A stretch of 31,962 bases of DNA from Nanobdellota archaeon (GCA_018821425.1 JAHJMH010000019.1:1-31962); one strand, 5' to 3'. Shown: positions 1 through 18,692, numbered from the stretch's first letter. Numbers and translations: made by a program. The notes: generated from the letters alone by a model not told the origin.

Positions 1-42
1 GAGATTGAAGAAATAAAAAGCCAGTTGAATGTATCAAAATAA
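1..42 (+). CDS. 3' end of a gene entering from the left (EIEEIKSQLNVSK*), probably a peptidase S74 / intramolecular chaperone domain protein
   Basis: Frame-1 read ends with TAA at 40-42. It is identical to 1010-1051, whose upstream part encodes the S74-like GLDYGALTPILVEGIKEL plus a coiled coil. Confidence 0.5.
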   Translation, partial: EIEEIKSQLNVSK

Positions 43-99
43 AACAGGGGAGACGACGTGGAGTAAAGAGGGAGAATAAAACCGGAAGGGGGACGCTCG
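1..99 (+). repeat. Direct repeat copy 1 (truncated by the window edge)
   Basis: 99/99 identical to 1010-1108 by direct comparison. Confidence 0.95.
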
Positions 100-104
100 C
101 TTCA

Positions 105-509
105 CTAACTCAATTTTCTGATTAATTCTAAAGTATTATAGATTTTTATTTTACTCTGATTTTTTAATTTTTTATCTTGAGTCCAAATCGGACAATTGAA
201 TTTTAATGCAGCAGCAAAATAATGAATATCATCTGAATCTGGAGAAATCTTTTCTGCCTCTTTAACAAATTTTCTTAGTTCCGGCAAAGGAATTATTTCT
301 ATCTTGCTCCTTAAAATAAACATAAATTTTTGAAAGTCTGATTCTGACCTGTGAGTTTTTTTTAAAATTTCTCTTTCATGTTCCTCAAATTCTGCTAATA
401 CAAATTCAGGGGTTATTAATTCAAATTTGTCTGACGTTATTAACTCTGCAGTTCCGGAATCTTTTATCAATGCTGAGAACAAAACATTAGCATCTACAAC
501 CAACAACAT
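105..509 (-). CDS. PIN-domain (VapC-like) toxin
   Basis: N-terminal VVDANV, central E, and DxDDxxxxAAA..WTQD acidic PIN motifs; 134 aa. Confidence 0.9.
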   Translation of the reverse strand: MLLVVDANVLFSALIKDSGTAELITSDKFELITPEFVLAEFEEHEREILKKTHRSESDFQKFMFILRSKIEIIPLPELRKFVKEAEKISPDSDDIHYFAAALKFNCPIWTQDKKLKNQSKIKIYNTLELIRKLS

Positions 510-731
510 TTACATCTCCTTATACTTTTCAACTACCTTTTTGTTGACTCTTTTTCCAAATTCCAATGCATCTTTCTCTGCAAATTCACTTTCTAAACTA
601 AAATTTTTCAAGAACTCTAATTCCTGAATTTTTTTGAGCACTGCTACTCTGGCAACTCGAGACCAATCTATGTTATTATTTTTCTCAATTATTATTCTTA
701 TTTCTTCTGGGATGTTTACTCTCAATTCCAT
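510..731 (-). CDS. Cognate VapB-like antitoxin
   Basis: 73 aa, directly upstream of and abutting the PIN gene; RHH-like N-terminus (RVNIPEE...DWSRVARVAV). Confidence 0.75.
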   Translation of the reverse strand: MELRVNIPEEIRIIIEKNNNIDWSRVARVAVLKKIQELEFLKNFSLESEFAEKDALEFGKRVNKKVVEKYKEM

Positions 732-770
732 AAATTTTATCGGAAGTGATTCTATTTAAAACTTATGTTA

Positions 771-1051
771 ATAAGCCAAGTAAATCGTTCCAGAGATTGT
801 TGAGTTTGGGGACAAAAATAATCCTTCAAATTGGTATTTGATAATATTACAGGAGAAAAAAACTCTACGCAACGGGACTTGACTACGGTGCTTTGACGCC
901 GATTCTTGTTGAAGGTATTAAAGAATTAAAATCTGAAAAGGACGCAGAGATAAAATCTTTGAAGAAAGAAAACGCGAACTTGCAGAATCAAATTAATGAA
1001 TTGAAAGCGGAGATTGAAGAAATAAAAAGCCAGTTGAATGTATCAAAATAA
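771..1051 (+). pseudogene. Frameshifted remnant of the 3' end of an S74-chaperone-domain gene
   Basis: With two single-base corrections (about 839 and about 860) it reads IVPEIVEFGDKNNPSNWY-DNITGEK-LYATGLDYGALTPILVEGIKELKSEKDAEIKSLKKENANLQNQINELKAEIEEIKSQLNVSK*. No start codon. Confidence 0.7.
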
Positions 1052-1108
1052 AACAGGGGAGACGACGTGGAGTAAAGAGGGAGAATAAAACCGGAAGGGG
1101 GACGCTCG
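1010..1108 (+). repeat. Direct repeat copy 2
   Basis: Identical to 1-99. Confidence 0.95.
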
Positions 1109-1162
1109 TTTTGCTCGCGTGATGTTGAATAATTATGCGGCGCCTCGTTGCGCTCGGCGCCG
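1101..1162. repeat. GC-rich REP-like palindromic elements
   Basis: gacgctcgttttgctcgcg and the hairpin cggcgcc-tcgttgcgctc-ggcgccg. 1142-1157 matches 27263-27278 at 14/16. Confidence 0.5.
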
Positions 1163-1321
1163 AGAAAGATTCATTAATATGCGAGCTAATTGTTTTTTGA
1201 GAATGGTTCGTGCGAAATTTATGACGGCACGCGATTTGGTTTGATTAGCAAGTCAAGTCTTATTGCCAAGGTGCATATGGAAAAGAATTAAGTTTATTAA
1301 TAATTATTTTGTTATGTTAAA

Positions 1322-2329
1322 ATGATTGGGAAAACAAAAAAAGAGTTTGGATTAGTTTTGATTTTCTTGACCGTGGGCATTTTTGTTCTTCATTTTGGGA
1401 GTGCAGATATAATTTCTCTTAATGCTGGGGGTAATAACGAAGTAATCGTTTCGGTTGATAAATTCGTGGACGGATTTTTCTTTGGAATCCCATCTCCCGC
1501 TGCTGCTGCTGCTGCGGCAACTCCTGCCACGGGAGGAACTACTGGAGGAACTACTAGCACAACAACGACAACTTCTATTTCGTTGAATCCCTCGTCACTG
1601 GATATAAGTATGGGCGTGGACACTGTTCAGAGAAAGACTATAAGCGTTACAAATCTCGGGAGCTCTTCGGTAACGGTTTCTGTAAGTCAGACTGACCTTG
1701 ATGATTTAATTGCTCTTGGAAGTACGAGTCTCACTATCCCTGCTGGAGAAACTGCGAACCTGAATGTTACTTTCGCAGCGCCGAGCGATTCGGGGTCATA
1801 CAACGGAAAAATAATAATTGGCGGAAAGGAAGTTCTGGTCACACTGAATGTTTATGAGGGTTCCCTTCTTTTTGATTCTAACATAGTTGTTCTTAACAGA
1901 GATTATACTGCTTTCCAGGGAGATAAATTAGAGACTCTTGTGACTTTGATTCCTGTGGGAGAGCCGACGAGAATTGACATTACTCTGAACTATAAAATAA
2001 TTGATTACTCAAATAAAATTTTCTTTACAAAGTCTGAGACTCTTTTCGTTGGAGATGTGACTGAACTTGAGAGGAACTTTGATACGGGAGCTCTTCCCCC
2101 CGGAAGTTACATCTTGAGCCTTGAGCTTATTTATCCTGGAGGTGTTGCACCTTCGAGCGCGCACTTTATTATTGCTGGAAGAGAAATTCCTGCTATCCTT
2201 GGTAAGTTGGTGATATTCCTCCTTGTGCTCATTATCTTAGTAATAATTGCTATACTCTCCATAGTCGTTGTGAGAAGATTCAGAAACCGAGAATCGGATG
2301 CACAGGTTTTGGGTCCAGGTACATTTTAA
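1322..2329 (+). CDS. Secreted/membrane-anchored surface protein with an Ala/Thr/Gly linker and Ig-like beta domains
   Basis: N-terminal hydrophobic signal, AAAAAAATPATGGTTGGTTSTTTTT linker, beta-rich middle, C-terminal TM followed by RRFRNR. Confidence 0.75.
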   Translation: MIGKTKKEFGLVLIFLTVGIFVLHFGSADIISLNAGGNNEVIVSVDKFVDGFFFGIPSPAAAAAAATPATGGTTGGTTSTTTTTSISLNPSSLDISMGVDTVQRKTISVTNLGSSSVTVSVSQTDLDDLIALGSTSLTIPAGETANLNVTFAAPSDSGSYNGKIIIGGKEVLVTLNVYEGSLLFDSNIVVLNRDYTAFQGDKLETLVTLIPVGEPTRIDITLNYKIIDYSNKIFFTKSETLFVGDVTELERNFDTGALPPGSYILSLELIYPGGVAPSSAHFIIAGREIPAILGKLVIFLLVLIILVIIAILSIVVVRRFRNRESDAQVLGPGTF

Positions 2330-2376
2330 TTTTCTGGAATGGGAAAATCTATAAACAATTTATCTTTTGAAAACTT

Positions 2377-3567
2377 ATGTTAATAGGACTCGTTGGAAAA
2401 CCGTCGGCAGGAAAGAGCACTTTTTTCAAAGCTGCGACTCTCGCAGAGGTGGCAATAGCGGCTTATCCTTTTACGACGATAAAACCTAACACAGGAGTAG
2501 GTTATGTGAAAGTTGAATGCATTGATAAAGAGTTTAATACTAAGTGCAACCCGAGTCACGGTTTTTGCGTCGATGGAAAAAGATTTGTTCCCGTTGAAAT
2601 AATGGACGTTGCAGGTTTGGTCCCGGGGGCGAGCGAGGGTAAGGGTCTTGGGAATCAGTTCCTTGACGATTTGCGACAGGCTGATGCTTTCATTCAAGTC
2701 GTGGATTGTTCGGGAAGGTCGAATGAAAAAGGAGAACAATTGCCCGAAGGGAAAACGAGGGATCCTGCAGATGACATAAAATTTCTGGAAGAAGAGCTTA
2801 ATCTTTGGTTTTACAACTTGTTGATGAAAGTCTGGAAAAGCTTTTCAAAAAAGACTGAAATGGAGAGGGGGAAATTTTCAGAAGCTGTCGCGAAGCAGTT
2901 TTCTGGTTTGAGAGTTAAGGAGGAATATGTTAAAGACGTTTTGAGAAATTTGAATCTGAGTGAAAAGCCGAGCGAGTGGAGTGAAAAACAATTAAGGAAT
3001 TTTGCTGAAGGTCTTCGGAGAAAGAGTAAGCCGATGATTATTGCTGCCAATAAAATAGATTTGCCTGGGGCTATAGATAATTATCGAAAACTGAGAGCAG
3101 ACTTTCCAAATTTGAATATTGTTCCGTGTTCTGCGGATTCCGAGTTAGCGTTGAGAGAAGCGTCGAAGGCAGGGCTTATAGAATATATTCCCGGAGAAAA
3201 AGATTTCAAAATTATCGGAGAATTGAACGAAAAGCAAAAAGATGCGTTGGAGAAAATTCGTGAAAAGTTTAAAGATTTCGTTGGAGGAACTGGAGTTCAG
3301 TCAATTTTAAACAATGCAGTCTTTGGACTTCTCAGTTATATTCCAATTTTTCCGGCGAGTGCAAACAAGCTCGCGGATAGTAAGGGGAACATTTTGCCAG
3401 ACTGTTTTCTTTTGCCTCCTGGCTCGACGGCGTTGGATTTTGCGTACTTTTTGCACACGGATTTCGGGGAGAATTTTATTAAAGCAATAGACGCACGCAC
3501 GAAGAAAGCCCTCGGGAAAAATTACGAGTTGAAGCCAAGAGATGCTTTAGAAATTGTGACGCGGTGA
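2377..3567 (+). CDS. ychF: Obg-family ATPase YchF (archaeal type)
   Basis: GKPSAGKST, YPFTTIKPN, DVAGLVPGASEGKGLGNQFL, ANKID, C-terminal TGS domain. Confidence 0.95.
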   Translation: MLIGLVGKPSAGKSTFFKAATLAEVAIAAYPFTTIKPNTGVGYVKVECIDKEFNTKCNPSHGFCVDGKRFVPVEIMDVAGLVPGASEGKGLGNQFLDDLRQADAFIQVVDCSGRSNEKGEQLPEGKTRDPADDIKFLEEELNLWFYNLLMKVWKSFSKKTEMERGKFSEAVAKQFSGLRVKEEYVKDVLRNLNLSEKPSEWSEKQLRNFAEGLRRKSKPMIIAANKIDLPGAIDNYRKLRADFPNLNIVPCSADSELALREASKAGLIEYIPGEKDFKIIGELNEKQKDALEKIREKFKDFVGGTGVQSILNNAVFGLLSYIPIFPASANKLADSKGNILPDCFLLPPGSTALDFAYFLHTDFGENFIKAIDARTKKALGKNYELKPRDALEIVTR

Positions 3568-3627
3568 TTTCTTCATCATTGAGTAATGATATTTCTTTTT
3601 ATAGGCTATCAAACTTTATTTATTTTA

Positions 3628-4545
3628 ATGAAGCTTAAACATTGTATTGAATCACAGCAGTTTTCTAAGGAATTGTTGTTTGAATTGTTTAATTTGGCAG
3701 ATTCATTGAGGGAAAATAATGGAGAACTTCTAAAAGGAAAAATAATGGCTTCTTTATTTTACGAACCTTCTACAAGAACTAGGCTTAGTTTTGAGTCTGC
3801 GATGCTCAAGCTTGGAGGAAGAGTTATTGGAACTGAAAATGCGAAGGAATTTTCTTCAGCTGTTAAAGGAGAATCTCTTGAGGATTCTACGAGGGTGATT
3901 TCTTCTTACTCTGATGTTATTGTGATAAGGCATGACGTTGACGGATCTGCGAAATTATGTTCTTCAGTTTCAAAAGTTCCGGTAATAAATGCCGGAGACG
4001 GAAAGGGTCAACACCCAACCCAAGCTTTATTGGATGTTTATACTATCTATCTGGAGTTCGGAAAAATTGACGGACTAAAAATTGCAATGGTTGGGGATTT
4101 GTCTTCCGGAAGAACTGTAAGGTCGTTATGTTACTTGCTTGGAAAATTTGAAAACGTTGAGATAATTTTTGTTTCTCCTGAAAATCTGAAAATGAAAGAC
4201 GATATTAAAGATTATTTAAATCGTCACAATGTAAAATTTAGGGAAGAAAGCGATCTTGATAAAATTTTAACTGAAGTTGATGTTATCTATATGACTAGAA
4301 TTCAAAAAGAAAGAATAAGTTTTGAAGATTATGAAGCAGCAATGGGAAAATTCGTCATAAACGAAACTAATTTCAATTTTGTTCCTAAGAGTTCAAGGAT
4401 AATGCATCCCTTACCTCATGTTGAAGAAATTGAACTTCCCATTGTTTTAGAAAACTTTGACGAAAGAGTGGCTTATTTTAGGCAAGCTGAAAATGGTCTT
4501 TATATAAGAATGGCTTTGTTGGTTCATTTGCTTGGAGTTGATTAG
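3628..4545 (+). CDS. pyrB: Aspartate carbamoyltransferase catalytic subunit
   Basis: FYEPSTRTRLSFE, INAGDG..QHPTQALLD, MHPLP motifs. Start moved to the ATG at 3628. Confidence 0.95.
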   Translation: MKLKHCIESQQFSKELLFELFNLADSLRENNGELLKGKIMASLFYEPSTRTRLSFESAMLKLGGRVIGTENAKEFSSAVKGESLEDSTRVISSYSDVIVIRHDVDGSAKLCSSVSKVPVINAGDGKGQHPTQALLDVYTIYLEFGKIDGLKIAMVGDLSSGRTVRSLCYLLGKFENVEIIFVSPENLKMKDDIKDYLNRHNVKFREESDLDKILTEVDVIYMTRIQKERISFEDYEAAMGKFVINETNFNFVPKSSRIMHPLPHVEEIELPIVLENFDERVAYFRQAENGLYIRMALLVHLLGVD

Positions 4546-4575
4546 ATTTAAAAGTTTTAATTGTTTCTTCATTTG

Positions 4576-4788
4576 ATGAAAATAAAAATAAAGGTGAAGC
4601 CCAATTCTGGGAAACAGGAAATTTCAAAAGAAGGCGAAGGTTATGTGGTTTTTTTGAAATCTGCGCCAGAGAACGGAAAAGCAAATGTCGAACTCTTGAA
4701 GTTGTTACAAAGGTATTTTAAACGGGAAGTAAAAATAAAAACAGGACTTAGTTCCAAAAATAAAATTGTTGAGGTTTTTGATAAATGA
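4576..4788 (+). CDS. DUF167 (YggU-like) protein
   Basis: IKVKPNS...KSAPENGKAN.EL...TG.SSKNK pattern. ATG at 4576. Confidence 0.9.
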   Translation: MKIKIKVKPNSGKQEISKEGEGYVVFLKSAPENGKANVELLKLLQRYFKREVKIKTGLSSKNKIVEVFDK

Positions 4789-5195
4789 AAACATTAACTC
4801 TTAAACAGCCGTGGGCAGAACTTGTTTTGCAAGGCAGGAAGAAAATTGAATTAAGAAAGTGGAACATGAATTTTCGCGGACCGTTTTTTATTCATAGTTC
4901 TAAAATTCCCGACTCTGATGGGATGAAAAAATTCGGGTTTGACAATTTGCCTAATGGATTTGTTCTAGGAAGAGCAAATTTGGTTGATGTTAAGAAGTAT
5001 ATTGATGGAGATGATTTTTTGAAAGATAAAAAGAAACATCTGGCCACGGAAGAATGGGGCAAATATGGTTTTATTTTAGATGATGTTAAAAGAATCAAGC
5101 CAATTTCTGCGAGGGGTCAGTTAGGTTTTTGGGATTTTTATGTGGAAGAATTAAGGGAGGTTGACGGTCAAGGAACCGTAGGTGCCTTACCATGA
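4785..5195 (+). CDS. ASCH domain protein
   Basis: LTLKQPWAELVLQGRKKIELRKW and C-terminal RGQLGFWD. Confidence 0.9.
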   Translation: MKTLTLKQPWAELVLQGRKKIELRKWNMNFRGPFFIHSSKIPDSDGMKKFGFDNLPNGFVLGRANLVDVKKYIDGDDFLKDKKKHLATEEWGKYGFILDDVKRIKPISARGQLGFWDFYVEELREVDGQGTVGALP

Positions 5196-5599
5196 AATAC
5201 GAATACGCGCCAGATTTGCAGGTTATTTCCGACGAGATTTCACAGCTTTTGTTCCCGCATGTTAAACTTGGAAGAGTAAGATGTTTTCGAAGTTATGGAA
5301 CTTCTTCACGAGGAACAATAGCGAGGTGTCATACTATTGGGAAATTAATTCAGAAAGCACTCAACACCGATGCGTTTTATGTTCTTGAATTTATTTCTGA
5401 ACGGTTTGATAAAATGGATTCTGAAGAACAGATTAAAGTTATAATTCATGAACTCATGCACATTCCCTCAACTTTTGGCGGCGGTTTTAGGCATCATGAC
5501 CATGTTCATGAGGGAAACGTTGAAAAAAATTATCGGACTTATAAATTATTGAAAGATGGGGGTGAAGATGGTGAGAGAAAAAGTTTCTTTCGTTTTTAA
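5192..5599 (+). CDS. Putative zinc metallopeptidase (HExxH)
   Basis: IIHELMHIP motif, preceded by S.GT...IARC. Confidence 0.8.
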   Translation: MKYEYAPDLQVISDEISQLLFPHVKLGRVRCFRSYGTSSRGTIARCHTIGKLIQKALNTDAFYVLEFISERFDKMDSEEQIKVIIHELMHIPSTFGGGFRHHDHVHEGNVEKNYRTYKLLKDGGEDGERKSFFRF

Positions 5600-5918
5600 A
5601 AAAAGGAAGTTCAGCGTCGAGGCAAGAACGTGCGGGTTCTTTAGTTTTGGACTGATGTTTAGAACGCGCCAGACGGAGCCGTGTGTTTTTAGGTTTGACA
5701 ATGATACAAATTTCAGAATAAGTTCTCTTTTTGTTCCTTTCTCTTTTTTAGCAATTTGGCTTGATGGGAAAAATCGAGTCATGAGTGTTAGGAAAGTGAA
5801 TCCATTCACGGTCTCGGTTTCTTCAGATAAGCCTTACAGAACTTTACTTGAAATTCCAGTAAATAAAAAATATTCCAAACTTGTAAACATTTTTGGGAGA
5901 GGCCTTTTCCGTCGGTAA
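5556..5918 (+). CDS. DUF192-like protein
   Basis: GLMFR...FVPFSFLAIWLD...LLEIP pattern. The true start may be the ATG at 5568. Confidence 0.7.
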   Translation: MGVKMVREKVSFVFKKRKFSVEARTCGFFSFGLMFRTRQTEPCVFRFDNDTNFRISSLFVPFSFLAIWLDGKNRVMSVRKVNPFTVSVSSDKPYRTLLEIPVNKKYSKLVNIFGRGLFRR

Positions 5919-5980
5919 AGAAAGATTTAAATACATCTTCGATTTTATTTATTAATTATCAGCAAAAAGGAGGTGTAAAA

Positions 5981-6136
5981 ATGGGAAAGATTATTGTTAA
6001 AAAAGTTATAACTAGAAAGCCAGGACATCTTTACTACGTTGACGGACAAGGGAATGTTTGCGAGGCTGTTATGGCTAGAGGCGGAAAGAAAAAGAAGGCT
6101 ACAAAGAAAAAAGTTACAAAGAAAAAGAAGAGATAA
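5981..6136 (+). CDS. 51-aa very basic protein with a Lys-rich tail (not in the ORF track)
   Basis: MGKIIVKKVITRKPGHLYYVDGQGNVCEAVMARGGKKKKATKKKVTKKKKR*. Strong SD (AGGAGGTG, about 5968-5975), TATA-like TTTAAATA at 5926, T-rich terminator downstream. Confidence 0.85.
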   Translation: MGKIIVKKVITRKPGHLYYVDGQGNVCEAVMARGGKKKKATKKKVTKKKKR

Positions 6137-6181
6137 ATAGTCTTCTGTTTTTTATTTTTTAATCATTTTTATTTTATTTTG
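6137..6181 (+). terminator. Oligo-T archaeal-type terminator
   Basis: Several T5-T7 runs directly after the stop codon. Confidence 0.55.
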
Positions 6182-6216
6182 AAAAAGTTTTAAAGTAGTG
6201 ATATGTTTCTTTTTCT

Positions 6217-6918
6217 ATGAAAGCAATTATACTTGCTGCAGGGTTCGGGACGCGACTTCATCCCTTTACTCTTGAAAAGCCTAAATCCCTTCTTGAAATA
6301 AAGGGAATGCCCCTTATTGATTATATAATTGAAAAAATTCCACGGAGCGTTGACGAAACCATTCTTGTTTCTAACGCAAAGTTTTATAGTAGTTTTCTAG
6401 AATGGAAGAAAACCTCTGGGGCAAAATTGAAGATTTTAAATGATGGGGTTCTTGTGAATGAAGAAAGACTTGGGGGAATCGCTGATTTATGGTTGGCAAT
6501 TCAAAGAGAAAAGATTAATGACGATTTACTGATAATCTTGGGAGATAACTTTTTTGATTTCAACTTGGAGACGTTTCTTGATTTGTTTTATAAAGATAAA
6601 AAAATATCTATAGGATTGTATCAAACGGATTTTCAAAAAGCGAAAAAATTTGGCGTTGCTGAAGTCGAAGGTAATGACTTAATTGATATTGAAGAAAAAC
6701 CAGACAAGCCTAAATCTGATCTTATCGTAACTGGACTTTATTTAATTCCAAAAGAAAAAATTAGTTTGATTCAGGAATACATGAAAACAAATAAAGACAA
6801 AGGAGGAATAACATATCTCATAAAGGACTGGCTGGGTAAGGAAAAGATAAAAGCCTGTACCTTTAAAGGAGGGTGGGAAGATATTGGCGATGTTGAGACT
6901 TATGAAAAATTAAAATGA
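6217..6918 (+). CDS. Sugar-phosphate nucleotidyltransferase (NTP_transferase family)
   Basis: MKAIILAAGFGTRLHPFT..KPK.LL, GDN, IEEKP, W.DIG. Confidence 0.9.
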   Translation: MKAIILAAGFGTRLHPFTLEKPKSLLEIKGMPLIDYIIEKIPRSVDETILVSNAKFYSSFLEWKKTSGAKLKILNDGVLVNEERLGGIADLWLAIQREKINDDLLIILGDNFFDFNLETFLDLFYKDKKISIGLYQTDFQKAKKFGVAEVEGNDLIDIEEKPDKPKSDLIVTGLYLIPKEKISLIQEYMKTNKDKGGITYLIKDWLGKEKIKACTFKGGWEDIGDVETYEKLK

Positions 6919-8135: not shown

Positions 8136-8177
8136 AAGATTAATAAAATCTATAAATGGTCTTGCCGTAATCATCTT

Positions 8178-8582
8178 ATGAAGTTTAATGAACTACTTGG
8201 AGAGAAATTTGAAAAACTTGTTAAAGAAGATAAGGAAATCATAGCTGTGGTTATCTTCGGGAGTTTTGTTACAAATAGAGAATATAGTCGAGATGTTGAT
8301 GTTTGTTTAATCCTTGACAAAAGTTATTCAAATTCTTACATGACTACTAAGAGATTAAAATTTCTTTCTGTGATGTCTGGGCAATTTGATATCACAATTT
8401 TTCAGCAGCTTCCTCTTTATATAAAACAGCGAGTGTTAAAAGATGGGAAGGTAATTTTGTCTAAAAATGATGATGTCCTGTATGACATTGCTTATGCGAT
8501 GATAAAAGATTATAACCTGTTTGAGAAAATTTATCTTAATTATTTAAATTCGGTTGGAGAATTTGTCGAGGTTGTAAAATGA
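8178..8582 (+). CDS. Minimal nucleotidyltransferase (MNT) antitoxin, MntA-like
   Basis: FGS-x10-DVD motif; 134 aa; overlaps the HEPN gene by 4 bp. Confidence 0.9.
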   Translation: MKFNELLGEKFEKLVKEDKEIIAVVIFGSFVTNREYSRDVDVCLILDKSYSNSYMTTKRLKFLSVMSGQFDITIFQQLPLYIKQRVLKDGKVILSKNDDVLYDIAYAMIKDYNLFEKIYLNYLNSVGEFVEVVK

Positions 8583-10000: not shown

Positions 10001-10057
10001 AAATCTGTAAAATTTCTATCAATTTTTCTTTTTACCGACGATAAAACCCCGAAAAGA

Positions 10058-10065: not shown

Positions 10066-10121
10066 CCACGTTTGCTTTTTTGATATAGTTAGATTAAAAT
10101 TCTAAACTAAAATACGACAAA

Positions 10122-12011
10122 ATGACTCAAAAAAAATCTGATTATAGTGGCGGAGATATCCAAGTACTTGAAGGGCTTGAGGGAGTTAGAAAAAGACCGT
10201 CAATGTATATCGGGTCTACTGGAAAAGAAGGATTGCATCATATGATTTATGAGATTGTTGATAATTCGGTTGATGAAGCTTTGGCGGGATATTGCACCGA
10301 TATTAATGTTACGCTTAACAAGGATGGCTCCGTGATTGTTGTTGATGATGGTCGTGGGATTCCAGTTGACATTCACCCAACTCAGAAAATACCTGCAGTT
10401 CAGGTTGCTCTTACTAAACTTCACGCAGGAGGAAAATTTGACAAGAAATCATATCAAATTTCAGGAGGACTCCATGGTGTTGGAGTTTCTGTTGTTAATG
10501 CTCTTTCAAAAAAACTTGTTATAGAAGTGAGGAGGGATGGGAAGGTTCATAGACAGGAATATTCTCGGGGATTAGCTAAGACAAAACTAGAAGTTGTTGG
10601 GAAGACTGAAGACACTGGGACCACTGTGACTTTTTGGCCAGACCCTGAAATTTTTTCAACTGTTGATTTTGATTACAAGATTCTTGAGACAAGATTTAGG
10701 GAAGTTGTTTTTCTTAACACTGGATTGAAGATAATTCTTATTGATGAGAAATCGGGAAAGAAGCAAGAGTTCTTTTCTTCTGGTGGACTTATTGAATTTG
10801 TGAAGTGGATTAATAAATCAAAAGAAGTTCTTCACAGCAGTCCGGTTTATTTTAAGAAAGAATCTGGAGACACGATTATAGAAGTCGCGGTTCAGTACAA
10901 TCAAGGATATCAGGAGAATATTTTTGGCTTTGTTAATACTATAAATACTGTTGAAGGGGGGACTCATGTTTCCGGATTCAAGACTGCTCTCACGAGGGCC
11001 ATCAACGATTACGCAAGGAAGAAAGGTTTGCTTAAGGACGGTTCGCTTTCCGGCGACGATGTTCGCGAAGGTTTGACTGCGATAATAAGCATTAAACTTC
11101 CGGACCCGCAGTTTGAAGGTCAGACAAAAACAAAACTTGGAAATTCTGAAATAAAGGGGATTGTCGATTCTGCGGTTTCTACTGCGCTCTCTGAATTTTT
11201 TGAGGAAAATCCAAACGTTGCGAAAAAGATAACGACAAAAGTTTTGGAATCTGCGCGAGCGAGACTTGCTGCTCGAAAAGCGCGTGATTTAGTCAGAAGA
11301 AAAAATGCATTTTCTCTTGGGGGTCTTCCTGGAAAACTTACAGATTGTTCGAGCAAGAAAAAAGAAAGCACTGAATTGTATCTTGTTGAAGGAATGTCTG
11401 CTGGAGGTTCGGCCAAAGATGCTCGTGATAAGGAGACGCAGGCAATTCTCCCATTAAAGGGAAAAATTTTGAATGTTGAAAAGGCGAATCCCGTGAAGTC
11501 GCTTTCAAGCGAAGAGATTGCGAATATGATTACTGCCGTCGGGACGGGAGTTGGCGAACAGTTCGATATGAACCGGTTAAGATACAATAAACTCGTAATT
11601 ATGGCCGATGCCGATGTCGACGGTGAACACATTAAAACTTTAATGTTGACTTTCTTTTTCAGATTCATGCCACAACTTATTGAGGCGGGTCACGTTTATG
11701 CTGCTTGGCCCCCACTTTACAAAATTAGGAAAGGACAAAAGGACTATTATGTCTATTCGGATGAAGAACTGAAAAAAGCTACAGATAAACTTGGACCGGT
11801 GAGCGTCACAAGATTCAAAGGTCTTGGAGAAATGAATCCCCAACAGCTTTGGGATACGACGATGAATCCTAAGACAAGAAAAATCAAAAAGATTTTTATC
11901 GAGGATGCGGTCGAAGCCGACAGAGTTTTTTCGATGTTGATGGGCGATGACGTTCCCGCGAGAAAAGCATTCATACAAGAAAACGCGCAAGAAGCGCAAC
12001 TGGACGTTTAA
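10122..12011 (+). CDS. gyrB: DNA gyrase subunit B
   Basis: EIVDNSVDE, DDGRGIP, LHAGGKF, SGGLHGVG, PLKGKILN, MADADVDG.H, RFKGLGEM. Confidence 0.97.
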   Translation: MTQKKSDYSGGDIQVLEGLEGVRKRPSMYIGSTGKEGLHHMIYEIVDNSVDEALAGYCTDINVTLNKDGSVIVVDDGRGIPVDIHPTQKIPAVQVALTKLHAGGKFDKKSYQISGGLHGVGVSVVNALSKKLVIEVRRDGKVHRQEYSRGLAKTKLEVVGKTEDTGTTVTFWPDPEIFSTVDFDYKILETRFREVVFLNTGLKIILIDEKSGKKQEFFSSGGLIEFVKWINKSKEVLHSSPVYFKKESGDTIIEVAVQYNQGYQENIFGFVNTINTVEGGTHVSGFKTALTRAINDYARKKGLLKDGSLSGDDVREGLTAIISIKLPDPQFEGQTKTKLGNSEIKGIVDSAVSTALSEFFEENPNVAKKITTKVLESARARLAARKARDLVRRKNAFSLGGLPGKLTDCSSKKKESTELYLVEGMSAGGSAKDARDKETQAILPLKGKILNVEKANPVKSLSSEEIANMITAVGTGVGEQFDMNRLRYNKLVIMADADVDGEHIKTLMLTFFFRFMPQLIEAGHVYAAWPPLYKIRKGQKDYYVYSDEELKKATDKLGPVSVTRFKGLGEMNPQQLWDTTMNPKTRKIKKIFIEDAVEADRVFSMLMGDDVPARKAFIQENAQEAQLDV

Positions 12012-12012
12012 A

Positions 12013-12309
12013 ATGAAAGGAAAATTATCAACACCTGATTGGATAAGAGAAGGTTTTGATAGCAAGGCGGATTGGGAAAAAGCACAAGGAAAAAAAAGTT
12101 CGAGTAAGAAAGCGGGAAAAACATTTAAGGTTAAAGTTTGTCCGAAGTGCGATGGCAACGATGTGAAAGTTGTTATTGATGGAAAGGAAAACGGAAGCGC
12201 GAAAGATTGGGAGTGTAAATCATGTTCATGGACTGGGAAGGGCGTTAAAGAAAAAGAAATGAATGAGGACGAATTCATTGAATATATTGAAAAGATGGGG
12301 AAAAAATAA
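12013..12309 (+). CDS. Small zinc-ribbon protein
   Basis: CPKC...WECKSC. The real start is the aaaATG at 12013, directly after the gyrB stop. Confidence 0.75.
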   Translation: MKGKLSTPDWIREGFDSKADWEKAQGKKSSSKKAGKTFKVKVCPKCDGNDVKVVIDGKENGSAKDWECKSCSWTGKGVKEKEMNEDEFIEYIEKMGKK

Positions 12310-12671
12310 TGGAAGAAAAATTAATAAAAGTTTGGGATGAAGATTTTGATATTATCAAATCTAGAAAATCTTATGATGGTGCTTTTGCTAATATAACGAA
12401 TGGGGATGAGATAACTGTCATAATTGGGAAAAATAAAATTAATCAAGAGGATATTCTTGATATTGAAGGAGGCTGGAAATTAATTACATTCAATACAATT
12501 TTGGATTTTTCATTAACGGGATTTATTTCCAAAATCTCCTCGGTGCTAGCAGAAGAAAATATAAGCATATTTGTTATCTCTTCGTATTCCACCGACCATG
12601 TTCTTGTTAAAAAAGAAAATTTGGACAAAGCATTGGTTGTCTTGAAAAATTTGGAGATTGATATAAAATGA
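12309..12671 (+). CDS. ACT-domain protein
   Basis: DFSLTGFISKISSVLAEENISIFVISSYSTDHVLVK (ACT_7-type signature). Confidence 0.85.
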   Translation: MEEKLIKVWDEDFDIIKSRKSYDGAFANITNGDEITVIIGKNKINQEDILDIEGGWKLITFNTILDFSLTGFISKISSVLAEENISIFVISSYSTDHVLVKKENLDKALVVLKNLEIDIK

Positions 12672-15600
12672 CACCCGAAGAAAATAAAAAACAAGAAACG
12701 CAGAAAGAAGATCCCGCCCGCCCGCCCGCCGTGATTAGCGAAGACAAGAACGTAGTGAATACTGAAATTACTGCAGAGATGAAAAAGTCGTATCTTGATT
12801 ATGCTATGTCCGTTATAGTGTCGCGAGCGATTCCTGCGATTGAAGATGGGCTTAAGCCAGTTCAAAGAAGAATTCTTTACTCCATGTTGGGTCTTGGTTT
12901 GCAACCAAACAAACAGACTCGAAAATCTGCGAGAATTGTTGGAGATACTCTTGGTAAGTACCATCCTCACGGCGACCTTGCTGTTTATGAGGCAATGGTA
13001 AGAATGGCACAGAGTTTTACTCTTAGATATCCTCTCATTATTGGTCAAGGAAATTTCGGATGTTTTACAGAAGATACAGAGGTGAAATTAGTTGATGGAA
13101 GAAATTTATCTTTTTCAGAATTAATTGTAGAACATAAGCAAGGAAAGAGAAATTTTACATTTACCTTGGATGAAGATTTGAAAATAAAAATTGCAGAGAT
13201 TAAAAATCCGAGACTGACCAAAGAAAGTGAAGAGATTATGAAAGTTATGTTGGATAATGGCGAAGGAATAAAGTGTACGTTGAACCATAAATTTATGCTC
13301 AAGAATGGAACATATAAAGAAGCGCAGAATTTAAAGTCAGGGGATTCATTAATGCCTGTTTATGTAAAATTATCTACAGAGAAAGATAAGAGTAATCCAA
13401 AACTTCTTGGTTATAAAATGGTTTTCCAACCAAAAACAAATTCTTGGGATTTTTTACACATACTTTCAGATAACTGGAATTTAGAAAATGAGATTTACCA
13501 AAAATCTGAGGGGAGGATAAGGCACCATCTTGATTTTAATAAACTGAACAATAATCCAAGTAATATCCGGAGAATGCATTGGAAAGAGCATTGGAAAACC
13601 CATTATGATTTTACTTCTGAAAAACACAAGAATGACGAGGATTATAGAGAAAAATTAGCTGAGGGCAGAATGAGATTTTGGGCTAATCCTGAAAATAGAG
13701 AAGCATATTCTGAGAGGATGACTAAAAGAAATTTAAGAAATTGGAAGGAGGAAGATTATCAAGAAAAAATGAAAGTAATCTTAAGTGAAGTTAATAAAAA
13801 ATATCTAAAAGAACATCCTGAGAGGATAGAAGAAATTAGAAGAACAGCGTTGCTTACAATGAAAAGGATGTGGCAAACCCCAAAATATAAAAAATTGTTT
13901 AATGAAAAAATTATTGCTTCAAATAAAAAAAGAAAAACTAATTTAACAGGTAAAAAGAAATTTTTAACAATTTGCAATTATCTTAAGAATAATGGGCTTA
14001 TTCTTAATAAAAATAATTATGAAGAAATAAGAGATAAAATTTTCAAAATAAAAAGTTTTACTCAATGGGATTTAGGGATAACAAAATATTTTGGTGGAAA
14101 CCAAAATTTATTATTATGCGAGTTAAATCAAAATCACAAAGTTGTTGGGATAGAATTTTTAAGAGAACATAAAGATGTTTATGATTTAACTGTGGACAAA
14201 ACACATAATTTTGCATTGGCTTCCGGGGTGTTTGTTCATAATTCTGTTGACGGCGACCCTGCTGCGGCGCAAAGGTACACTGAAGCGAAGTTAGCCCCGA
14301 TCACAATGGATCTAATTGAAGATATTGATAAGGAAACGGTTAAATTCTCGCCTAATTTTGATGGTTCTATGAAGGAGCCGGACCTTCTTCCAGGGAAATT
14401 GCCCGCCCTTATGTTAAACGGCGCCTCGGGAATTGCAGTTGGAATGGCGACGAATATTCCGCCTCACAATCTTACAGAAGTTTGTGATGCGATTATTGCT
14501 TACGTAAAAAATTCTGATATAAGTATTGAGGAGCTCGCGAAAATTGTTACTGCTCCTGATTTCCCGACGGGGGGTTCTGTTTCCGGAGATATGCTCGAAC
14601 TTTACAAGACCGGAAGGGGAAAACTTATTTTGAGGGGAAAAACTAATACTGAGTCTTTGAAATCCAAGGACGCAATTGTGATTACTGAAATTCCTTACAT
14701 GTTGAATAAATCCACTTTGGTTACGCAGATTGCAGATATGGTTCAGAATAAAAAATTAAGAGACATTTCCGATATAAGGGACGAATCTTCGAAAGGGAAG
14801 ACAAGGATAGTCATTGAATTAAGAAAGGGGGCGAATTCTAAATTTGTTATTAATTCTCTTTACAAATACACGCGGCTCCAGGATTCTTTTAATGTGAATT
14901 TCCTTGCGCTGGTTAAAGGACGACCTCGCGTGATGACTCTTAGGGATGTTGTTAGAGAATATGTTGATTATAGAAAAAATATTATAACGAACAGAACTAA
15001 ATTTGATTTGAAGAAAGCTAAAGATAGAATTGAGATTGTTCTTGGGTTACTAAAGGCGTTGAAAGATATTGATGCTATTATCAAATTTATAAAGGCTTCC
15101 AAGAATTCTGTGGATGCTCTCGAAGGTCTTCTTAAGAAATTTGGTTTCACAAGGAGACAGGCACAGGCTGTTCTTGAAACGCGACTTCAACAGCTCACAA
15201 GTTTGGAACATGGCAAACTTCAGAAAGAACAGGATGAATTAAATTTGAAAATTTCTGAATTTGAGAAGATACTCGGGGATGTGAAAGAAATTTTGAAAGT
15301 TATCGTTCGTGAAGTTAATGAATTAAAGAAGAATTATGGAGATAACCGAAGGACTACGGTTCTGCAGAGAATGAGTGAGATTTCAGAAAAGGATCTTGTT
15401 CAGAAAAAAGAAGTTGTTGTTACGATAACGGAGAAGGGCTATTGCAAGAGAATGGATGTTAAATCTTACAGGGAACAGCGACGTGGGGGTAGGGGAGTTA
15501 TTGGAAGCGGTCTTGCAACAGGAGATTTTGTAAGGCAGCTTATTACTTGTTCAACTTATGATTACTTAATGTTCTTCACGACGAGGGGAAAAGTTTTATG

Positions 15601-16339
15601 GTTGAAGGCTTACGATATTCCGGAAGCAGAAAGATACAGCAAGGGAAAATCTCTCGCGAATCTTCTTAGTTTGAAAGATGAAACTGTTTCGAGCGTTATA
15701 TCTGTGAGCAAGTTTGAGGACTTCCTTTTCATGGCAACGAAAAAAGGAATTGTTAAAAGAATCTCCTTGGAGAATTTCTCAAGGCCGAGAGCTTCAGGTT
15801 TGCGCGCGATTAATCTTCCTGCTGACAATTCGGACGAGTTGATTGAAGTTCAAGTTATGAAAAAAGGCGACGAGGTTCTTCTTGCTACGAGGAAAGGTCA
15901 AGCAATAAGATTTAACAGTAATGATGTTAGGGATATGGGTCGCGCAAGTTATGGGGTCAATGGAATAAGATTGGGTAAGGATGATGAAGTTGTCAGTCTT
16001 GAATTGTTGGGAACTAAAGAAGTTTTGACTATCACAAAGAATGGATATGGAAAGCAAACAAAAGTTCAGGATTATAGAAAAACAGCGAGAGCAGGGAAGG
16101 GTGTTATGAACTTGAAAGTTTCGGAAAAAACGGGCGAGGTTGTTACGACGGTTTCAACACAGCCAAGTGATTCAATAATCATTACGACAGCGAAGGGAAT
16201 GGTCATAAGAACTTCTCTAAAGAATATAAGAGTGATGGGTCGCGCGACTCAAGGGGTTCGTGTAGTTAAGTTGTCGCCAGGAGACAGCGTTACTGATTTG
16301 ATAAAGGTTCATGAGAATGGTGAAGAAATAGTTGAATAG
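12668..16339 (+). CDS. gyrA: DNA gyrase subunit A containing a 394-aa intein (mature protein about 829 aa)
   Basis: DGLKPVQRR, KYHPHGD, AQRYTE (catalytic Tyr), GyrA-box QRRGGRG, beta-pinwheel repeats. Confidence 0.97.
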   Translation: MTPEENKKQETQKEDPARPPAVISEDKNVVNTEITAEMKKSYLDYAMSVIVSRAIPAIEDGLKPVQRRILYSMLGLGLQPNKQTRKSARIVGDTLGKYHPHGDLAVYEAMVRMAQSFTLRYPLIIGQGNFGCFTEDTEVKLVDGRNLSFSELIVEHKQGKRNFTFTLDEDLKIKIAEIKNPRLTKESEEIMKVMLDNGEGIKCTLNHKFMLKNGTYKEAQNLKSGDSLMPVYVKLSTEKDKSNPKLLGYKMVFQPKTNSWDFLHILSDNWNLENEIYQKSEGRIRHHLDFNKLNNNPSNIRRMHWKEHWKTHYDFTSEKHKNDEDYREKLAEGRMRFWANPENREAYSERMTKRNLRNWKEEDYQEKMKVILSEVNKKYLKEHPERIEEIRRTALLTMKRMWQTPKYKKLFNEKIIASNKKRKTNLTGKKKFLTICNYLKNNGLILNKNNYEEIRDKIFKIKSFTQWDLGITKYFGGNQNLLLCELNQNHKVVGIEFLREHKDVYDLTVDKTHNFALASGVFVHNSVDGDPAAAQRYTEAKLAPITMDLIEDIDKETVKFSPNFDGSMKEPDLLPGKLPALMLNGASGIAVGMATNIPPHNLTEVCDAIIAYVKNSDISIEELAKIVTAPDFPTGGSVSGDMLELYKTGRGKLILRGKTNTESLKSKDAIVITEIPYMLNKSTLVTQIADMVQNKKLRDISDIRDESSKGKTRIVIELRKGANSKFVINSLYKYTRLQDSFNVNFLALVKGRPRVMTLRDVVREYVDYRKNIITNRTKFDLKKAKDRIEIVLGLLKALKDIDAIIKFIKASKNSVDALEGLLKKFGFTRRQAQAVLETRLQQLTSLEHGKLQKEQDELNLKISEFEKILGDVKEILKVIVREVNELKKNYGDNRRTTVLQRMSEISEKDLVQKKEVVVTITEKGYCKRMDVKSYREQRRGGRGVIGSGLATGDFVRQLITCSTYDYLMFFTTRGKVLWLKAYDIPEAERYSKGKSLANLLSLKDETVSSVISVSKFEDFLFMATKKGIVKRISLENFSRPRASGLRAINLPADNSDELIEVQVMKKGDEVLLATRKGQAIRFNSNDVRDMGRASYGVNGIRLGKDDEVVSLELLGTKEVLTITKNGYGKQTKVQDYRKTARAGKGVMNLKVSEKTGEVVTTVSTQPSDSIIITTAKGMVIRTSLKNIRVMGRATQGVRVVKLSPGDSVTDLIKVHENGEEIVE
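13061..14242 (+). mobile_element. Intein with an HNH-type homing endonuclease
   Basis: Block A CFTEDT, block B CTLNH, block F VYDLTV...HNF, block G VFVHN|S. Internal RHHLDFNKLNNNPSNI..MHWKEH. Splits GNFG|SVDGD. Confidence 0.92.
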
Positions 16340-16370
16340 AATGGAAAGGCAGTCTTTAACTGAAAAAAAG

Positions 16371-16440
16371 GTGCGCGCTTCGCGCGATTGATGTTGCTCC
16401 GAAATGCCTCGAACGCCGGCGGGCACGAAGTTTCTCCGTG
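16371..16440. repeat. GC-rich REP-like palindromic sequence after gyrA
   Basis: gcgcgcttcgcgcg hairpin, similar to cgctcgcttc at 92-101 and 1101-1120. Confidence 0.4.
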
Positions 16441-16542
16441 AGAATATACCTAACATAAAAAACTCCAATGAGATTAAATAACAATTGACTCGTTAGGCTC
16501 ACATATTAATTAAAGATAACTTAAACAGCATGAATATTAGAA

Positions 16543-17664
16543 TTATTTATTCTCTTGCTTTAGAGCATCTTCGTTTTCATCTTCCTCGTCTTCGGTTTCC
16601 AAAACAAGAATGTTATTTATATCCTCATCTGTAAGTGAAAAGAGTCTTTCTATTATTGCATTAACTATAACTTGTCTATTATCGCTGTCAATAATAAATT
16701 TCCACTCAAATTCAACTTCAGTTAAACCATCCTCAGACTCTATTTTAACTTTTAATTTATCTTTACTTTCAGGAGGCTCATCACTTTCACCAATTTTAAG
16801 CAGACTATTTATCTCTTCCGAACTTAATATTAATTTACTTAAAATTTCAGAAATCACATCATCTGTGTTTGTGATTTCAGTTTCAAACTCTAATTCAACT
16901 TCAATTTCAGAACTCCCATTTAGAGTTTCTACATTTATTTCCAATTCCTCGTCAATCTTAATGTCTCCGAATTTTTCTTCTAGTTCTTCATCATCAGATA
17001 CTATTTCGTCTTCTAAGGTTTCATTACCGACTATTTCATTTTTGTCAGCAATTTTTTCACCAGTTATTATGAATGCCCACCAAGGGGTATTAACATCTAT
17101 GATTTCTCCAGTTTCAGGATCTATTTGTGTTTGCACCTTCATTGAAAGTTTGATTATTCCTAAAAATCGCCCCGGATGTTCTGAGTTAATTTTGTAAACC
17201 ACTCTTGGGATATTTTTGTGCTCTATTTCATCAATTGAAAACTCCGTTATGTTATTTGCTTTTAATCTTTCCATTATTAGAACTCTAAGTTTTTCAGGAG
17301 TAACTCTTATTCTGTGCCTTTCTCCTTCTGAATCTACAATAGAAAGGTTTGCTCCATTACCCTCAACTTTTAATCTTGTTCTTATTTCTGTTTGACCATC
17401 TTTTACTCTTATTTTTCTTTCAGACCTAATTTCTTTTTCAACCTCACCCTCTATTACTCTTATTCTTGTCTCGGCTCTGACTCTTGCCGAATCATCATCA
17501 TCATCATCAGAGTTATCATTTGAGCTTCCCGAATTGTCTGCGGATGCGGCGTTTTCGGAATTGCCTATTCCCGCATTTACCGAATCGGCGAGAACAAATG
17601 AAGAATTAATTAGAATTCCGAATGCTAGAACTAATAACAAAGAAACTATCACAGCCCTTTTCAT
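16543..17664 (-). CDS. Secreted acidic hypothetical protein
   Basis: Signal peptide, Ser/Asp low-complexity stretch, central IDPETGE...PWWAF motif, very acidic C-half. Confidence 0.75.
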   Translation of the reverse strand: MKRAVIVSLLLVLAFGILINSSFVLADSVNAGIGNSENAASADNSGSSNDNSDDDDDDSARVRAETRIRVIEGEVEKEIRSERKIRVKDGQTEIRTRLKVEGNGANLSIVDSEGERHRIRVTPEKLRVLIMERLKANNITEFSIDEIEHKNIPRVVYKINSEHPGRFLGIIKLSMKVQTQIDPETGEIIDVNTPWWAFIITGEKIADKNEIVGNETLEDEIVSDDEELEEKFGDIKIDEELEINVETLNGSSEIEVELEFETEITNTDDVISEILSKLILSSEEINSLLKIGESDEPPESKDKLKVKIESEDGLTEVEFEWKFIIDSDNRQVIVNAIIERLFSLTDEDINNILVLETEDEEDENEDALKQENK

Positions 17665-17683
17665 AAAAGTATTATAGGATTAT

Positions 17684-17845
17684 ATCTTATAAACATTTCT
17701 TTCTCTATCTGAGAATTAAACAACGTCGCCCCAGCCAATTAATCGCCAGTGACCCTCGATGTTTCTCGCTATTCCGACTTATCTTCTTTCAGAATTACTA
17801 CTGGAATGTTTAAGATTACTTCGACTTCGTCACCAGATATTTTTT
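17684..17845 (-). repeat. Direct repeat copy A: duplicated eif2g 3' end (pseudo-fragment 17716-17845) plus downstream promoter
   Basis: Identical to 18530-18692 apart from a 1-bp deletion (cgac-ttatc versus cgaccttatc). Confidence 0.95.
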
Positions 17846-17892
17846 TGGTGGACTATAGAAAATTTTATATAATCGCCTTTTGTTAATCTAGT

Positions 17893-18087
17893 ATGGTTGA
17901 ATCAATAAGTCTCGAACAAGTTTATCAGAAATTGGAGGGTATAGAGTTGTTTATGAAAAAGTTTGAACAGCTTGCAGAAGATATGGAATTTGCGAGGAGG
18001 ACTGAAGAGGCTATTAGAAGGCATGAAGAAGGAAACTTCACTGAAATGGACTCAAAAGATTTTTTGAAAGAACTTGAAAAATGGTGA
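17893..18087 (+). CDS. Putative antitoxin of the RelE-family toxin
   Basis: 64 aa, acidic, overlaps the downstream relE; own TATA (TTTTATAT, about 17864). Confidence 0.7.
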   Translation: MVESISLEQVYQKLEGIELFMKKFEQLAEDMEFARRTEEAIRRHEEGNFTEMDSKDFLKELEKW

Positions 18088-18329
18088 GAGTTATTTATGA
18101 TGAAATTTTTAAACGAGCTGTTTCTAAAACGAAAGACTCATCTGTTCAGAAGAATATAAAAAATAAAATCTCAAAAATTATTGACAATCCAGAGGTTGGG
18201 AAGCCGATGGGTTACGGACGGAAAGGAACAAGGGAAGTTTATGTCGACTCTTTTCGCCTTTCTTATAGGTATACAAGAGAAAAAAACCTTGTGGAGTTCC
18301 TTGACTTTTATCATAAAGATAGACAATAA
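18081..18329 (+). CDS. RelE/ParE-family toxin
   Basis: I.KII.NP.VGKPM...RKG.REVYV..FRL.Y...H.D pattern. Confidence 0.85.
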   Translation: MVRVIYDEIFKRAVSKTKDSSVQKNIKNKISKIIDNPEVGKPMGYGRKGTREVYVDSFRLSYRYTREKNLVEFLDFYHKDRQ

Positions 18330-18529
18330 ATTTAGAAATCTTATTAGTTTCTTTCACTTGTTATTTGGATTTTGCGTCGGGAAACAATATTAATAAATAA
18401 AATTCTCTGATTAATTCTTGCAGGTTAGAAGCCATTATCTATTTTATTTTTCCATCTGATATATTCTTCCCATAAGATATTGGGTCCAAAGCTCATTTGG
18501 TTTCCTTTTTATCATATTAAAGAAATAAA

Positions 18530-18692
18530 ATCTTATAAACATTTCTTTCTCTATCTGAGAATTAAACAACGTCGCCCCAGCCAATTAATCGCCAGTGACC
18601 CTCGATGTTTCTCGCTATTCCGACCTTATCTTCTTTCAGAATTACTACTGGAATGTTTAAGATTACTTCGACTTCGTCACCAGATATTTTTT
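18530..18692 (-). repeat. Direct repeat copy B (intact eif2g 3' end plus 32 bp downstream)
   Basis: See 17684-17845. Confidence 0.95.

Follow-up and report, generated by a model that had tools for sequence, protein, structure and literature searches.

Toxin–antitoxin cassettes bracketed by duplicated host sequence at gene junctions of a DPANN-type archaeon

In the present study, we analyzed three predicted toxin–antitoxin (TA) pairs in a 31,962-nt stretch of DNA from a Nanobdellota archaeon (GCA_018821425.1, JAHJMH010000019.1), hereafter called the window. The window is the entire contig C27 of G000, a groundwater metagenome-assembled genome (MAG) of a DPANN-type archaeon, which comprises 613 kb in 84 contigs, has a GC content of 37% and is 91% complete. 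It was observed that direct repeats of host sequence bracket all three pairs (loci 1, 2 and 3), as a sequence-only reading of the window had stated, and the toxin assignments were backed by Pfam. Comparison with 41 other genomes of the genus (congeners) and with related strains supported, at the sequence level, the interpretation that the cassettes are insertions relative to congeners with empty sites and that the flanking repeats represent duplicated target sequence. These are small (0.68–0.9 kb), AT-rich, promoter-bearing TA cassettes inserted at gene junctions with a target duplication of 36–276 nt. On balance, we consider it somewhat probable that this duplication was made by host repair or replication and that the cassettes are kept by addiction.

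At locus 3, a RelBE-type cassette (17846–18529, plus strand; GC 32%) separates two host genes of the minus strand, namely the intact aIF2-gamma gene (18562–19767; Pfam GTP_EFTU and eIF2_C, matched to the last residue) and a downstream 373-aa gene that has no Pfam family (16543–17664). The cassette encodes a 64-aa antitoxin (17893–18087) and a ParE/RelE-family toxin (18081–18329; Pfam PF05016), preceded by a TATA-like box near 17863–17872. On the aIF2-gamma side lies repeat copy R2 (18530–18692, minus strand), which contains the functional 3' end of the gene and 32 nt downstream. On the other side lies remnant R1 (17684–17845, minus strand), which contains 131 nt of coding sequence and 32 nt downstream and carries a 1-nt deletion. 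Self-comparison indicated that the two copies are identical but for this single 1-nt indel (162/163 nt), and weaker similarity reaches 17656/18504. The repeat holds a TTTATAA box, located 25 nt from the start of the 373-aa gene; the duplication therefore preserves both the aIF2-gamma end and the promoter of the neighbor. The empty site was found in two congeners, in which aIF2-gamma abuts the homologue of the 373-aa gene at a distance of 63 nt (G010) and 22 nt (G002). Both cassette/repeat junctions were seen in four Logan runs from four different studies, in which the organism was present at about 12x, 560x, 44x and 33x, and the depth of the cassette was 0.8–1.2x that of its flanks. The Logan contigs stop 30 nt into the repeat because they were built with k = 31. 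Another MAG (GCA_018819745.1) assembles straight across the locus and is 99.8% identical to the window, indel included. This indel is strain-specific, and other strains carry perfect 163-nt repeats.

At locus 2, an MNT-HepT cassette (8136–9021, plus strand; GC 30%) follows the intact kae1 gene (TsaD family; 6915–8135, plus strand; Pfam PF00814), whose C-terminus KPRQRTDDVEVDWR fits the genus consensus. The cassette contains MNT (Polbeta-type; 8178–8582) and HepT (8579–9022), both identified by Pfam, with a TATA-like box near 8152–8160. The left repeat is formed by the last 45 nt of kae1 (8091–8135, plus strand). The right repeat is a kae1 3'-end remnant (9022–9066, plus strand) that reads KLRQRTDDVYVIWSR followed by a stop and then runs into the native kae1–rpl7ae intergenic region and promoter (9067–9163). 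In self-comparison, 8091–8129 and 9022–9060 are 79% identical, share an exact core of 19 nt and align in frame over 15 codons. The genus consensus of the kae1 C-terminus is KPRQRTDDVEVxWR, as against KLRQRTDDVYVIWSR in the remnant, which is in frame with one extra codon. Alignments of relatives are unbroken from about 9031 into rpl7ae, showing that the remnant and the native rpl7ae promoter form one uninterrupted stretch. In most of the congeners, the site is empty and kae1 and rpl7ae lie about 85–150 nt apart. Single Logan contigs span the locus in three runs from three studies (X1, X2 and X3; for example, 5153–9108), and in the fourth run (X4) a contig extends into the cassette as far as 8797. 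We also considered whether the active kae1 end came from a foreign donor. This was rejected, since the active end and the remnant both derive from the genus consensus and the remnant is the more decayed of the two.

A further empty-site comparison was provided by contig C83 of the same MAG, which carries a DUF433/DUF5615 cassette. The strain GCA_018828985.1 lacks this cassette and holds a single copy of the repeat, whereas a third strain carries the cassette. To its left, the single copy has the flank of repeat 1, whereas its body and the sequence to its right are those of repeat 2; the switch point between the two falls inside a 28-nt shared core, the longest identical stretch, which contains the 12-nt palindrome CTCGGCGCCGAG. 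The two repeats are 85% identical, and the strains are more than 99% identical in the flanks. The presence/absence difference shows recombination between the repeats and may reflect either insertion or precise deletion. The left edge of the repeats shows one A/C difference, which was considered as a signature of Campbell-type integration and was set aside because it fits integration and deletion alike. Collectively, the repeated segment was found once only at the empty sites of locus 3 (G010 and G002), locus 2 (most congeners) and the C83 cassette (GCA_018828985.1). A comparison with relatives for empty sites had been suggested by the sequence-only reading. A pattern that links both outer flanks through one repeat matched no JGI metagenome contig; a control pattern taken from within the cassette matched none either, as the organism is missing from that collection.

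Locus 1 lies at the start of the contig and differs from the other two. The left repeat copy (1–102, plus strand) consists of the terminal 42 nt of a Peptidase_S74-type chaperone-domain frame and 60 nt downstream, and is truncated at the contig start. The right copy (1010–1111, plus strand) lies inside a start-less S74 chaperone-domain remnant (771–1111, plus strand). The direct repeat is thus at least 102 nt long, and its copies are 99% identical in self-comparison. Between them lie a predicted VapC-like PIN_2 toxin (105–509, minus strand; Pfam PF10130, E = 1e-28) and a predicted VapB-like RHH antitoxin (510–731, minus strand; PF26688 RHH_12), with a TATA-like box within 732–770. The remnant is frameshifted at a run of seven A near 850–856, stops at 1049–1051 and continues with 60 nt of native downstream sequence. 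Downstream of it is a GC-rich palindrome (palindrome P, 1138–1171) that forms the hairpin CGGCGCC...GGCGCCG and was found again between TA cassettes on contigs C43, C64 and C83. The contig begins 42 nt ahead of the stop of the left copy, so that no intact S74 gene is seen in the window; nor is one present in the MAG, as the loose-end read sequences matched none of its 84 contigs. Two European Nucleotide Archive (ENA) assemblies reach further, and there the left copy encodes an S74 fragment of 70 aa that is about 93% identical to the right copy and is not frameshifted. In one of these assemblies, the first bases of vapB and its promoter precede the left S74 copy, and the assembly graph therefore forms a cycle of about 1.0 kb. 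The homopolymer of the remnant has seven A in the window and six A in a variant contig seen in two Logan runs. The S74 fragments are mosaic across strains, and the locus is polymorphic across samples.

Contig C83 continued this picture. Its reverse complement ends at the window-equivalent position 1008, and C27 begins at the equivalent of 1010. It was found that C83 contains five TA cassettes (two PIN_2 pairs, HicAB, DUF433/DUF5615 and MNT-HepT). Interspersed among them are S74 3' fragments as well as gene-end fragments of another type, after which a GC-rich palindrome occurs. The duplication terminates at the same GACGCTCG position at locus 1 and on C43; the S74-associated sites share this GACGCTCG end together with palindrome P, and the palindrome is confined to S74-associated arrays. 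From the sequence arrangement, we infer that locus 1 is the final unit of a multi-cassette TA array and not a lone insertion behind an intact gene.

The cassettes shared several features. The inserts are 684–907 nt long and contain only a toxin gene, an antitoxin gene and a promoter. As read from the sequence, a TATA-like box lies 20–26 nt ahead of the first ATG in each cassette, in agreement with the earlier proposal that each has its own promoter. The GC content of the cassettes is 29–32%, within the lowest 1–8% of genome windows, and the stop/start overlaps inside the pairs are 1–7 nt. The predicted toxins and their partners (PIN_2 with RHH_12, HepT with MNT, and ParE/RelE with a 64-aa protein) correspond to the type II TA architecture. 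Relative to the host gene, the pairs at loci 1, 2 and 3 are oriented opposite, same and opposite, respectively. Elsewhere in G000, the repeats are 36–276 nt long and consist of unrelated host sequences. One copy completes the upstream gene, and the other keeps the native downstream element, be it a promoter or a convergent gene's end. The sequence-only reading had described one layout for all three loci, namely an intact gene, the TA pair, a 3'-end remnant and the next host gene. This held for kae1 and aIF2-gamma at loci 2 and 3 and was not confirmed at locus 1, where the left copy is cut off by the contig start in the window and is a 70-aa fragment in the two ENA assemblies. Its statement that all three remnants carry 1-nt indels had to be withdrawn: the indel at locus 3 is strain-specific, the remnant at locus 2 is in frame, and a clear frameshift was found only at locus 1. 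No recombinase or transposase was found within the window, as had been noted before, and none lies in or beside the cassettes.

To evaluate how common this arrangement is, family searches were performed, which identified about 26 toxin genes in the 613 kb of G000. For each gene or gene pair, we then looked for a same-strand match of at least 35 bits between its 450-nt flanks. Such a bracketing repeat was found for 10 of the 26 toxin genes and for 15 of the 661 other genes (odds ratio 27, p = 2e-9), a strong genome-wide excess at TA loci, whose absence would have spoken against the sequence-only reading. Eight of the 15 repeat-flanked other genes are antitoxin partners; the non-TA loci with a bracketing repeat number about five among the 661. 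These few cases include a membrane-protein gene on C55 that lies between duplicated 5' ends and genes that lie between multicopy short repeats. Among the TA cases, an MNT-HEPN pair on C15 lies between the gene for a 250-aa surface protein and a copy of its last ~42 codons, which encode a C-terminal membrane anchor. On C80, a PIN_2 pair lies between two copies of a 36-nt segment in which two convergent genes overlap at their ends; one of these genes is flap-endonuclease-like (FEN-1) as judged from sequence only. Further cases are found on C43 (a 276-nt repeat) and C64 (two cases). G000 and its genus offer a dense natural set of events: ten TA modules flanked by repeats within the 613 kb of G000, empty sites in relatives, a case of presence or absence at strain level, and multi-cassette arrays.

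The signature was also detected in other species. About 6–8 of 19 PIN_2 loci have bracketing repeats no shorter than 43 nt. A VapBC pair of G009 lies between PCNA and the next gene and is flanked by a 61-nt repeat (95% identity) that comprises the PCNA stop, the entire promoter between the two genes and 11 nt from the start of the second one. In G004, a genome of six contigs, three cassettes alternate with four S74-type 3' ends, one pair of which is 99% identical; in G005, an S74-fragment repeat of 147 nt (97%) was found. At a HepT locus of G018, a 69-nt repeat duplicates the 5' end of the downstream gene. The duplicated targets thus include a promoter (G009), convergent ends (C80) and a 5' end (G018), so the signature is not limited to 3' ends, and the earlier proposal that 3' ends are specifically targeted was not sustained. 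These results indicated that the signature is widespread, neither universal nor limited to 3' ends. The junctions at loci 2 and 3 are hot spots as well: in about 12 relatives, unrelated non-TA genes occupy them, without flanking repeats save for one 21-nt repeat in G005.

The preferred explanation, in which the duplication arose at insertion, would proceed as follows. DNA repair or replication by the host would make the duplication upon capture of foreign DNA, either by fill-in of widely staggered breaks or by template switching that re-copies the target. The intergenic spacers in these compact genomes are 22–150 nt, and with such spacers the viable insertions would be only those that duplicate the overlapping gene end and promoter. 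The repeats could then feed homologous recombination, leading to loss, gene conversion or growth of arrays. Repeat-flanked inserts would usually be lost in this way, and cells that delete an addictive module would be killed or arrested. Several observations weigh against this explanation. The step from addiction to retention, which would account for the concentration of the signature on TA pairs, is purely inferential. The evidence comes from assembled contigs and contig depth. The p-value of the enrichment is overstated, because TA units inside arrays are not independent events, and among the MNT-HepT loci of relatives, only 2–4 of 19 have bracketing repeats and about 15 of 19 have no detectable ones. 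The rationale of DNA breaks that applies to restriction-modification systems does not apply here, since the toxins are RNases. In addition, the divergence of the C83 repeats speaks less for a recent duplication at the site than for an old one or for an incoming cassette with its own target copy (Campbell type).

That last point bears on the route proposed by the sequence-only reading, in which a TA pair together with one copy of a host gene end would form a circle of about 0.85–1.0 kb that integrates by Campbell-type single crossover through host RadA and is excised via the repeats. We regard this as possible, if rather doubtful, as the primary mechanism. In two independent MEGAHIT assemblies, the RelBE cassette plus one repeat forms an 847-bp closed loop, with a terminal overlap of exactly k (988 nt at k141 and 974 nt at k127), and locus 1 closes to a cycle of about 1.0 kb in one assembly. 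In the strains with the 847-bp loops, the repeat beside the 373-aa gene has no indel, and the resulting perfect 163-nt repeats exceed k. We rejected both the loops and the cycle as proof of circles, because they are non-diagnostic: perfect repeats longer than k collapse into the same loop, and the depth is about 1x. In four samples, the cassette and the chromosome have the same depth, and the unitig of vapBC lies at 1x, which indicates one integrated copy; rare circles may be compatible with these loop and depth data. The C83 polymorphism, with its 85% identical repeats, the chromosomal type in the single-copy strain and the switch within a 28-nt stretch, is consistent with a circle, as are the S74 fragments that are mosaic between strains, but deletion explains the C83 polymorphism equally well. 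The cassettes at unique sites (aIF2-gamma, kae1, PCNA in G009 and FEN-1 in C80) each occur in one species only. There is no visible source for a circle that already carries a unique target, so the first insertion would need another mechanism, and duplication at the insertion event is a simpler account of first insertions at unique sites. A broader version, in which DPANN TA pairs are integrase-free, homology-guided mobile cassettes that travel as circles of less than 1 kb with a host gene end as a self-carried attachment site, seems to us fairly unlikely. In this version, the cassettes would integrate and excise by host homologous recombination and, with their retention enforced by addiction, would accumulate as integron-like arrays behind S74-type genes of the surface or tail-fibre-like kind.

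It is improbable, in our judgment, that a recombinase or transposase acts in trans at hairpin or core sites such as palindrome P, with the repeats serving as att-like sequences. The candidates would be a serine recombinase on C35, three Y1 transposases and XerA. The genome-wide search returned one Resolvase (serine) gene on C35, three Y1_Tnp genes, one of them beside a RelE pair on C67, and one truncated Phage_integrase (tyrosine) gene at the edge of C73; TnpB is absent from G000, and no intI-like gene was found there. None of these adjoins the three loci or any array examined. The GC-rich palindromes at cassette boundaries in S74-associated arrays, the GACGCTCG end shared by locus 1 and C43 and the presence of CTCGGCGCCGAG at the C83 switch point argue for such an enzyme, and for the S74-associated arrays its action at hairpins is possible. 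By contrast, no motif common to the 10 junction sets was seen by inspection, including the junctions of loci 2, 3, C15 and C80, and the repeats are unrelated host sequences of 36–276 nt. Long target duplications are not made by Y1 transposition or integron recombination, and the promoter present in each cassette sets the cassettes apart from typical integron ones.

An assembly artefact, in which strain variants were mis-joined into a chimera, is highly improbable. The window is a whole MEGAHIT-type contig that starts within a repeat, TA loci concentrate on short contigs and contig ends, and locus 1 is polymorphic across samples. Exact 141-nt overlaps are common to many G000 contig ends, a sign of a de Bruijn assembly with k = 141, so breaks are expected at repeats longer than about 140 nt. 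However, single contigs from different studies span locus 2, four runs reproduce both junctions of locus 3, another MAG assembles locus 3 through, and the same architecture is found in high-contiguity genomes of other species, such as G004. Based on the independent Logan, ENA and NCBI contigs and their depth, an artefact was rejected for loci 2 and 3, and the sequence-only reading, which had named artefactual repeats as grounds for its own refutation, withstood this check. The repeats also matter for MAG quality, as they break assemblies and yield spurious 'circular' contigs.

The sequence-only reading had known of no described system with this layout. This was too strong, since an identical architecture has been described for bacterial restriction-modification units as insertion with long target duplication (Nobusato et al. 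2000, Gene 259:99; Furuta, Abe and Kobayashi 2010, NAR 38:2428, PMC2853133). In those cases, direct repeats of 46–423 bp flank the unit, occur once in the empty genome and often lie over the 3' end of the neighbor; the flanking repeats were significantly commoner than for average genes (PMC2853133). All reported cases of long target duplication are bacterial, and no archaeal one passed the 2010 screen (PMC2853133). The insertions described here resemble them in being addiction-type units without a mobility gene, with long and variable direct repeats, a single copy at the empty site and enrichment. Measured against the definition of Furuta et al. (2010), the cassettes are complete addiction units of less than 20 kb without a mobility gene and have repeats longer than 30 bp, and at loci 2 and 3 and the C83 cassette the repeated sequence aligns singly to an insert-free relative. 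The only departure is the cargo, which consists of type II TA pairs and not of restriction-modification genes. They differ further in the nature of the cargo (PIN, HepT, RelE/ParE and DUF5615), in the lack of element-encoded DNA cleavage, in the DPANN-type host and in that the cassettes also form arrays interleaved with repeated gene-end fragments. Insertion with long target duplication has its counterpart among TA pairs and in archaea in these cassettes, which extend the mode beyond bacterial restriction-modification units. A literature search, itself incomplete, found no report of long target duplication for type II TA pairs or for archaea.

Other mobile systems share part of this architecture. 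As with integrase-encoding elements at the 3' ends of tRNA or protein genes, the gene end is duplicated, the gene stays intact, the remnant lies on the far side and tandem accretion occurs; unlike those elements, the units are TA-only and shorter than 1 kb, encode no integrase and, on inspection of the 10 junction sets, show no common att core across sites. The arrays recall those of integrons in their small single cassettes, often TA, their palindromic separators and their presence or absence between strains. They differ in that the separators are host gene-end copies with a hairpin, that the cassettes have their own promoters, that no intI was found and that the kae1 and aIF2-gamma sites have no palindrome. 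Ghaly and colleagues reportedly described integrase-less attC clusters in archaeal MAGs in 2022. The pdif modules of Acinetobacter plasmids are minimal, some of them TA-only, and Xer-dependent, with inverted XerC/D sites and without a recombinase of their own. The present cassettes are similar as TA-only units that move without an encoded recombinase, but are chromosomal and have direct repeats of arbitrary host sequence. In contrast to insertion sequences and transposons, the units contain no transposase and have no terminal inverted repeats, and the duplications have variable lengths of 36–276 nt. Few prokaryotic genes are as mobile as TA modules, and the movement of chromosomal pairs without mobility genes is poorly explained. 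If true, homology-guided circles would be a general answer to this problem. The clustering of the signature on addiction modules suggests preservation of both flanks in a compact genome together with resistance to repeat-mediated deletion.

Several further observations concern the loci themselves. At the aIF2-gamma junction of the closest species, G005 (locus L011 on C13, 1827–2840), another gene is present instead of RelBE, without flanking repeats; judged by eye, it has a GDP-mannose 4,6-dehydratase-like N-terminus. The conspecific MAG GCA_043824235.1 carries an insert of 1.54 kb at the kae1 remnant, in place of about 29 nt (window 9050–9078; locus L076, 4516–6057); this insert contains two unannotated genes. 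The Logan contigs of two runs break at 9054/9079, near the same remnant; this suggests a strain-level hot spot there. The kae1 gene itself contains an in-frame insertion of about 220–250 nt (window 7555–7780), in which a GC-rich hairpin motif of 24 nt occurs in two identical copies, 66 nt apart. This insertion is missing from the kae1 genes of all ~40 matching congeners, including G005, and copies of its core (7586–7625) are found on at least seven other G000 contigs and in other species.

With regard to the wider genome, most congeners have 0–4 matches for PIN_2 or HepT, which points to a lineage-specific TA expansion in G000, where the TA genes are concentrated on contigs of 2–6 kb and at contig ends. 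One short contig, C71 (L035, 4184 nt), has identical 119-nt ends that form a 4065-bp loop, carries MNT-like and HEPN-domain genes, and has 120–190 nt in common with the end of the C43 TA island; it represents either a small circular element or another TA island whose flanking repeats collapsed. The Y1 transposase genes, which are IS200/IS605- or RAYT-like, are located at C40:12856–13203, C67:9–266 (the copy beside the RelE pair) and C45:4990–5136. G000 also holds several families of short GC-rich hairpin repeats, and together these may constitute a REP/RAYT-like system in a DPANN archaeon. A search of Rfam identified no RNA family within window positions 1–20000. Finally, the GyrA gene of the window (12668–16339; 1223 aa) contains an intein (Pfam Intein_splicing), and in some runs, read joints that skip about 1.44–1.49 kb of gyrA (12828–14321 and 12990–14432) were observed, as if intein-free alleles or relatives coexist.

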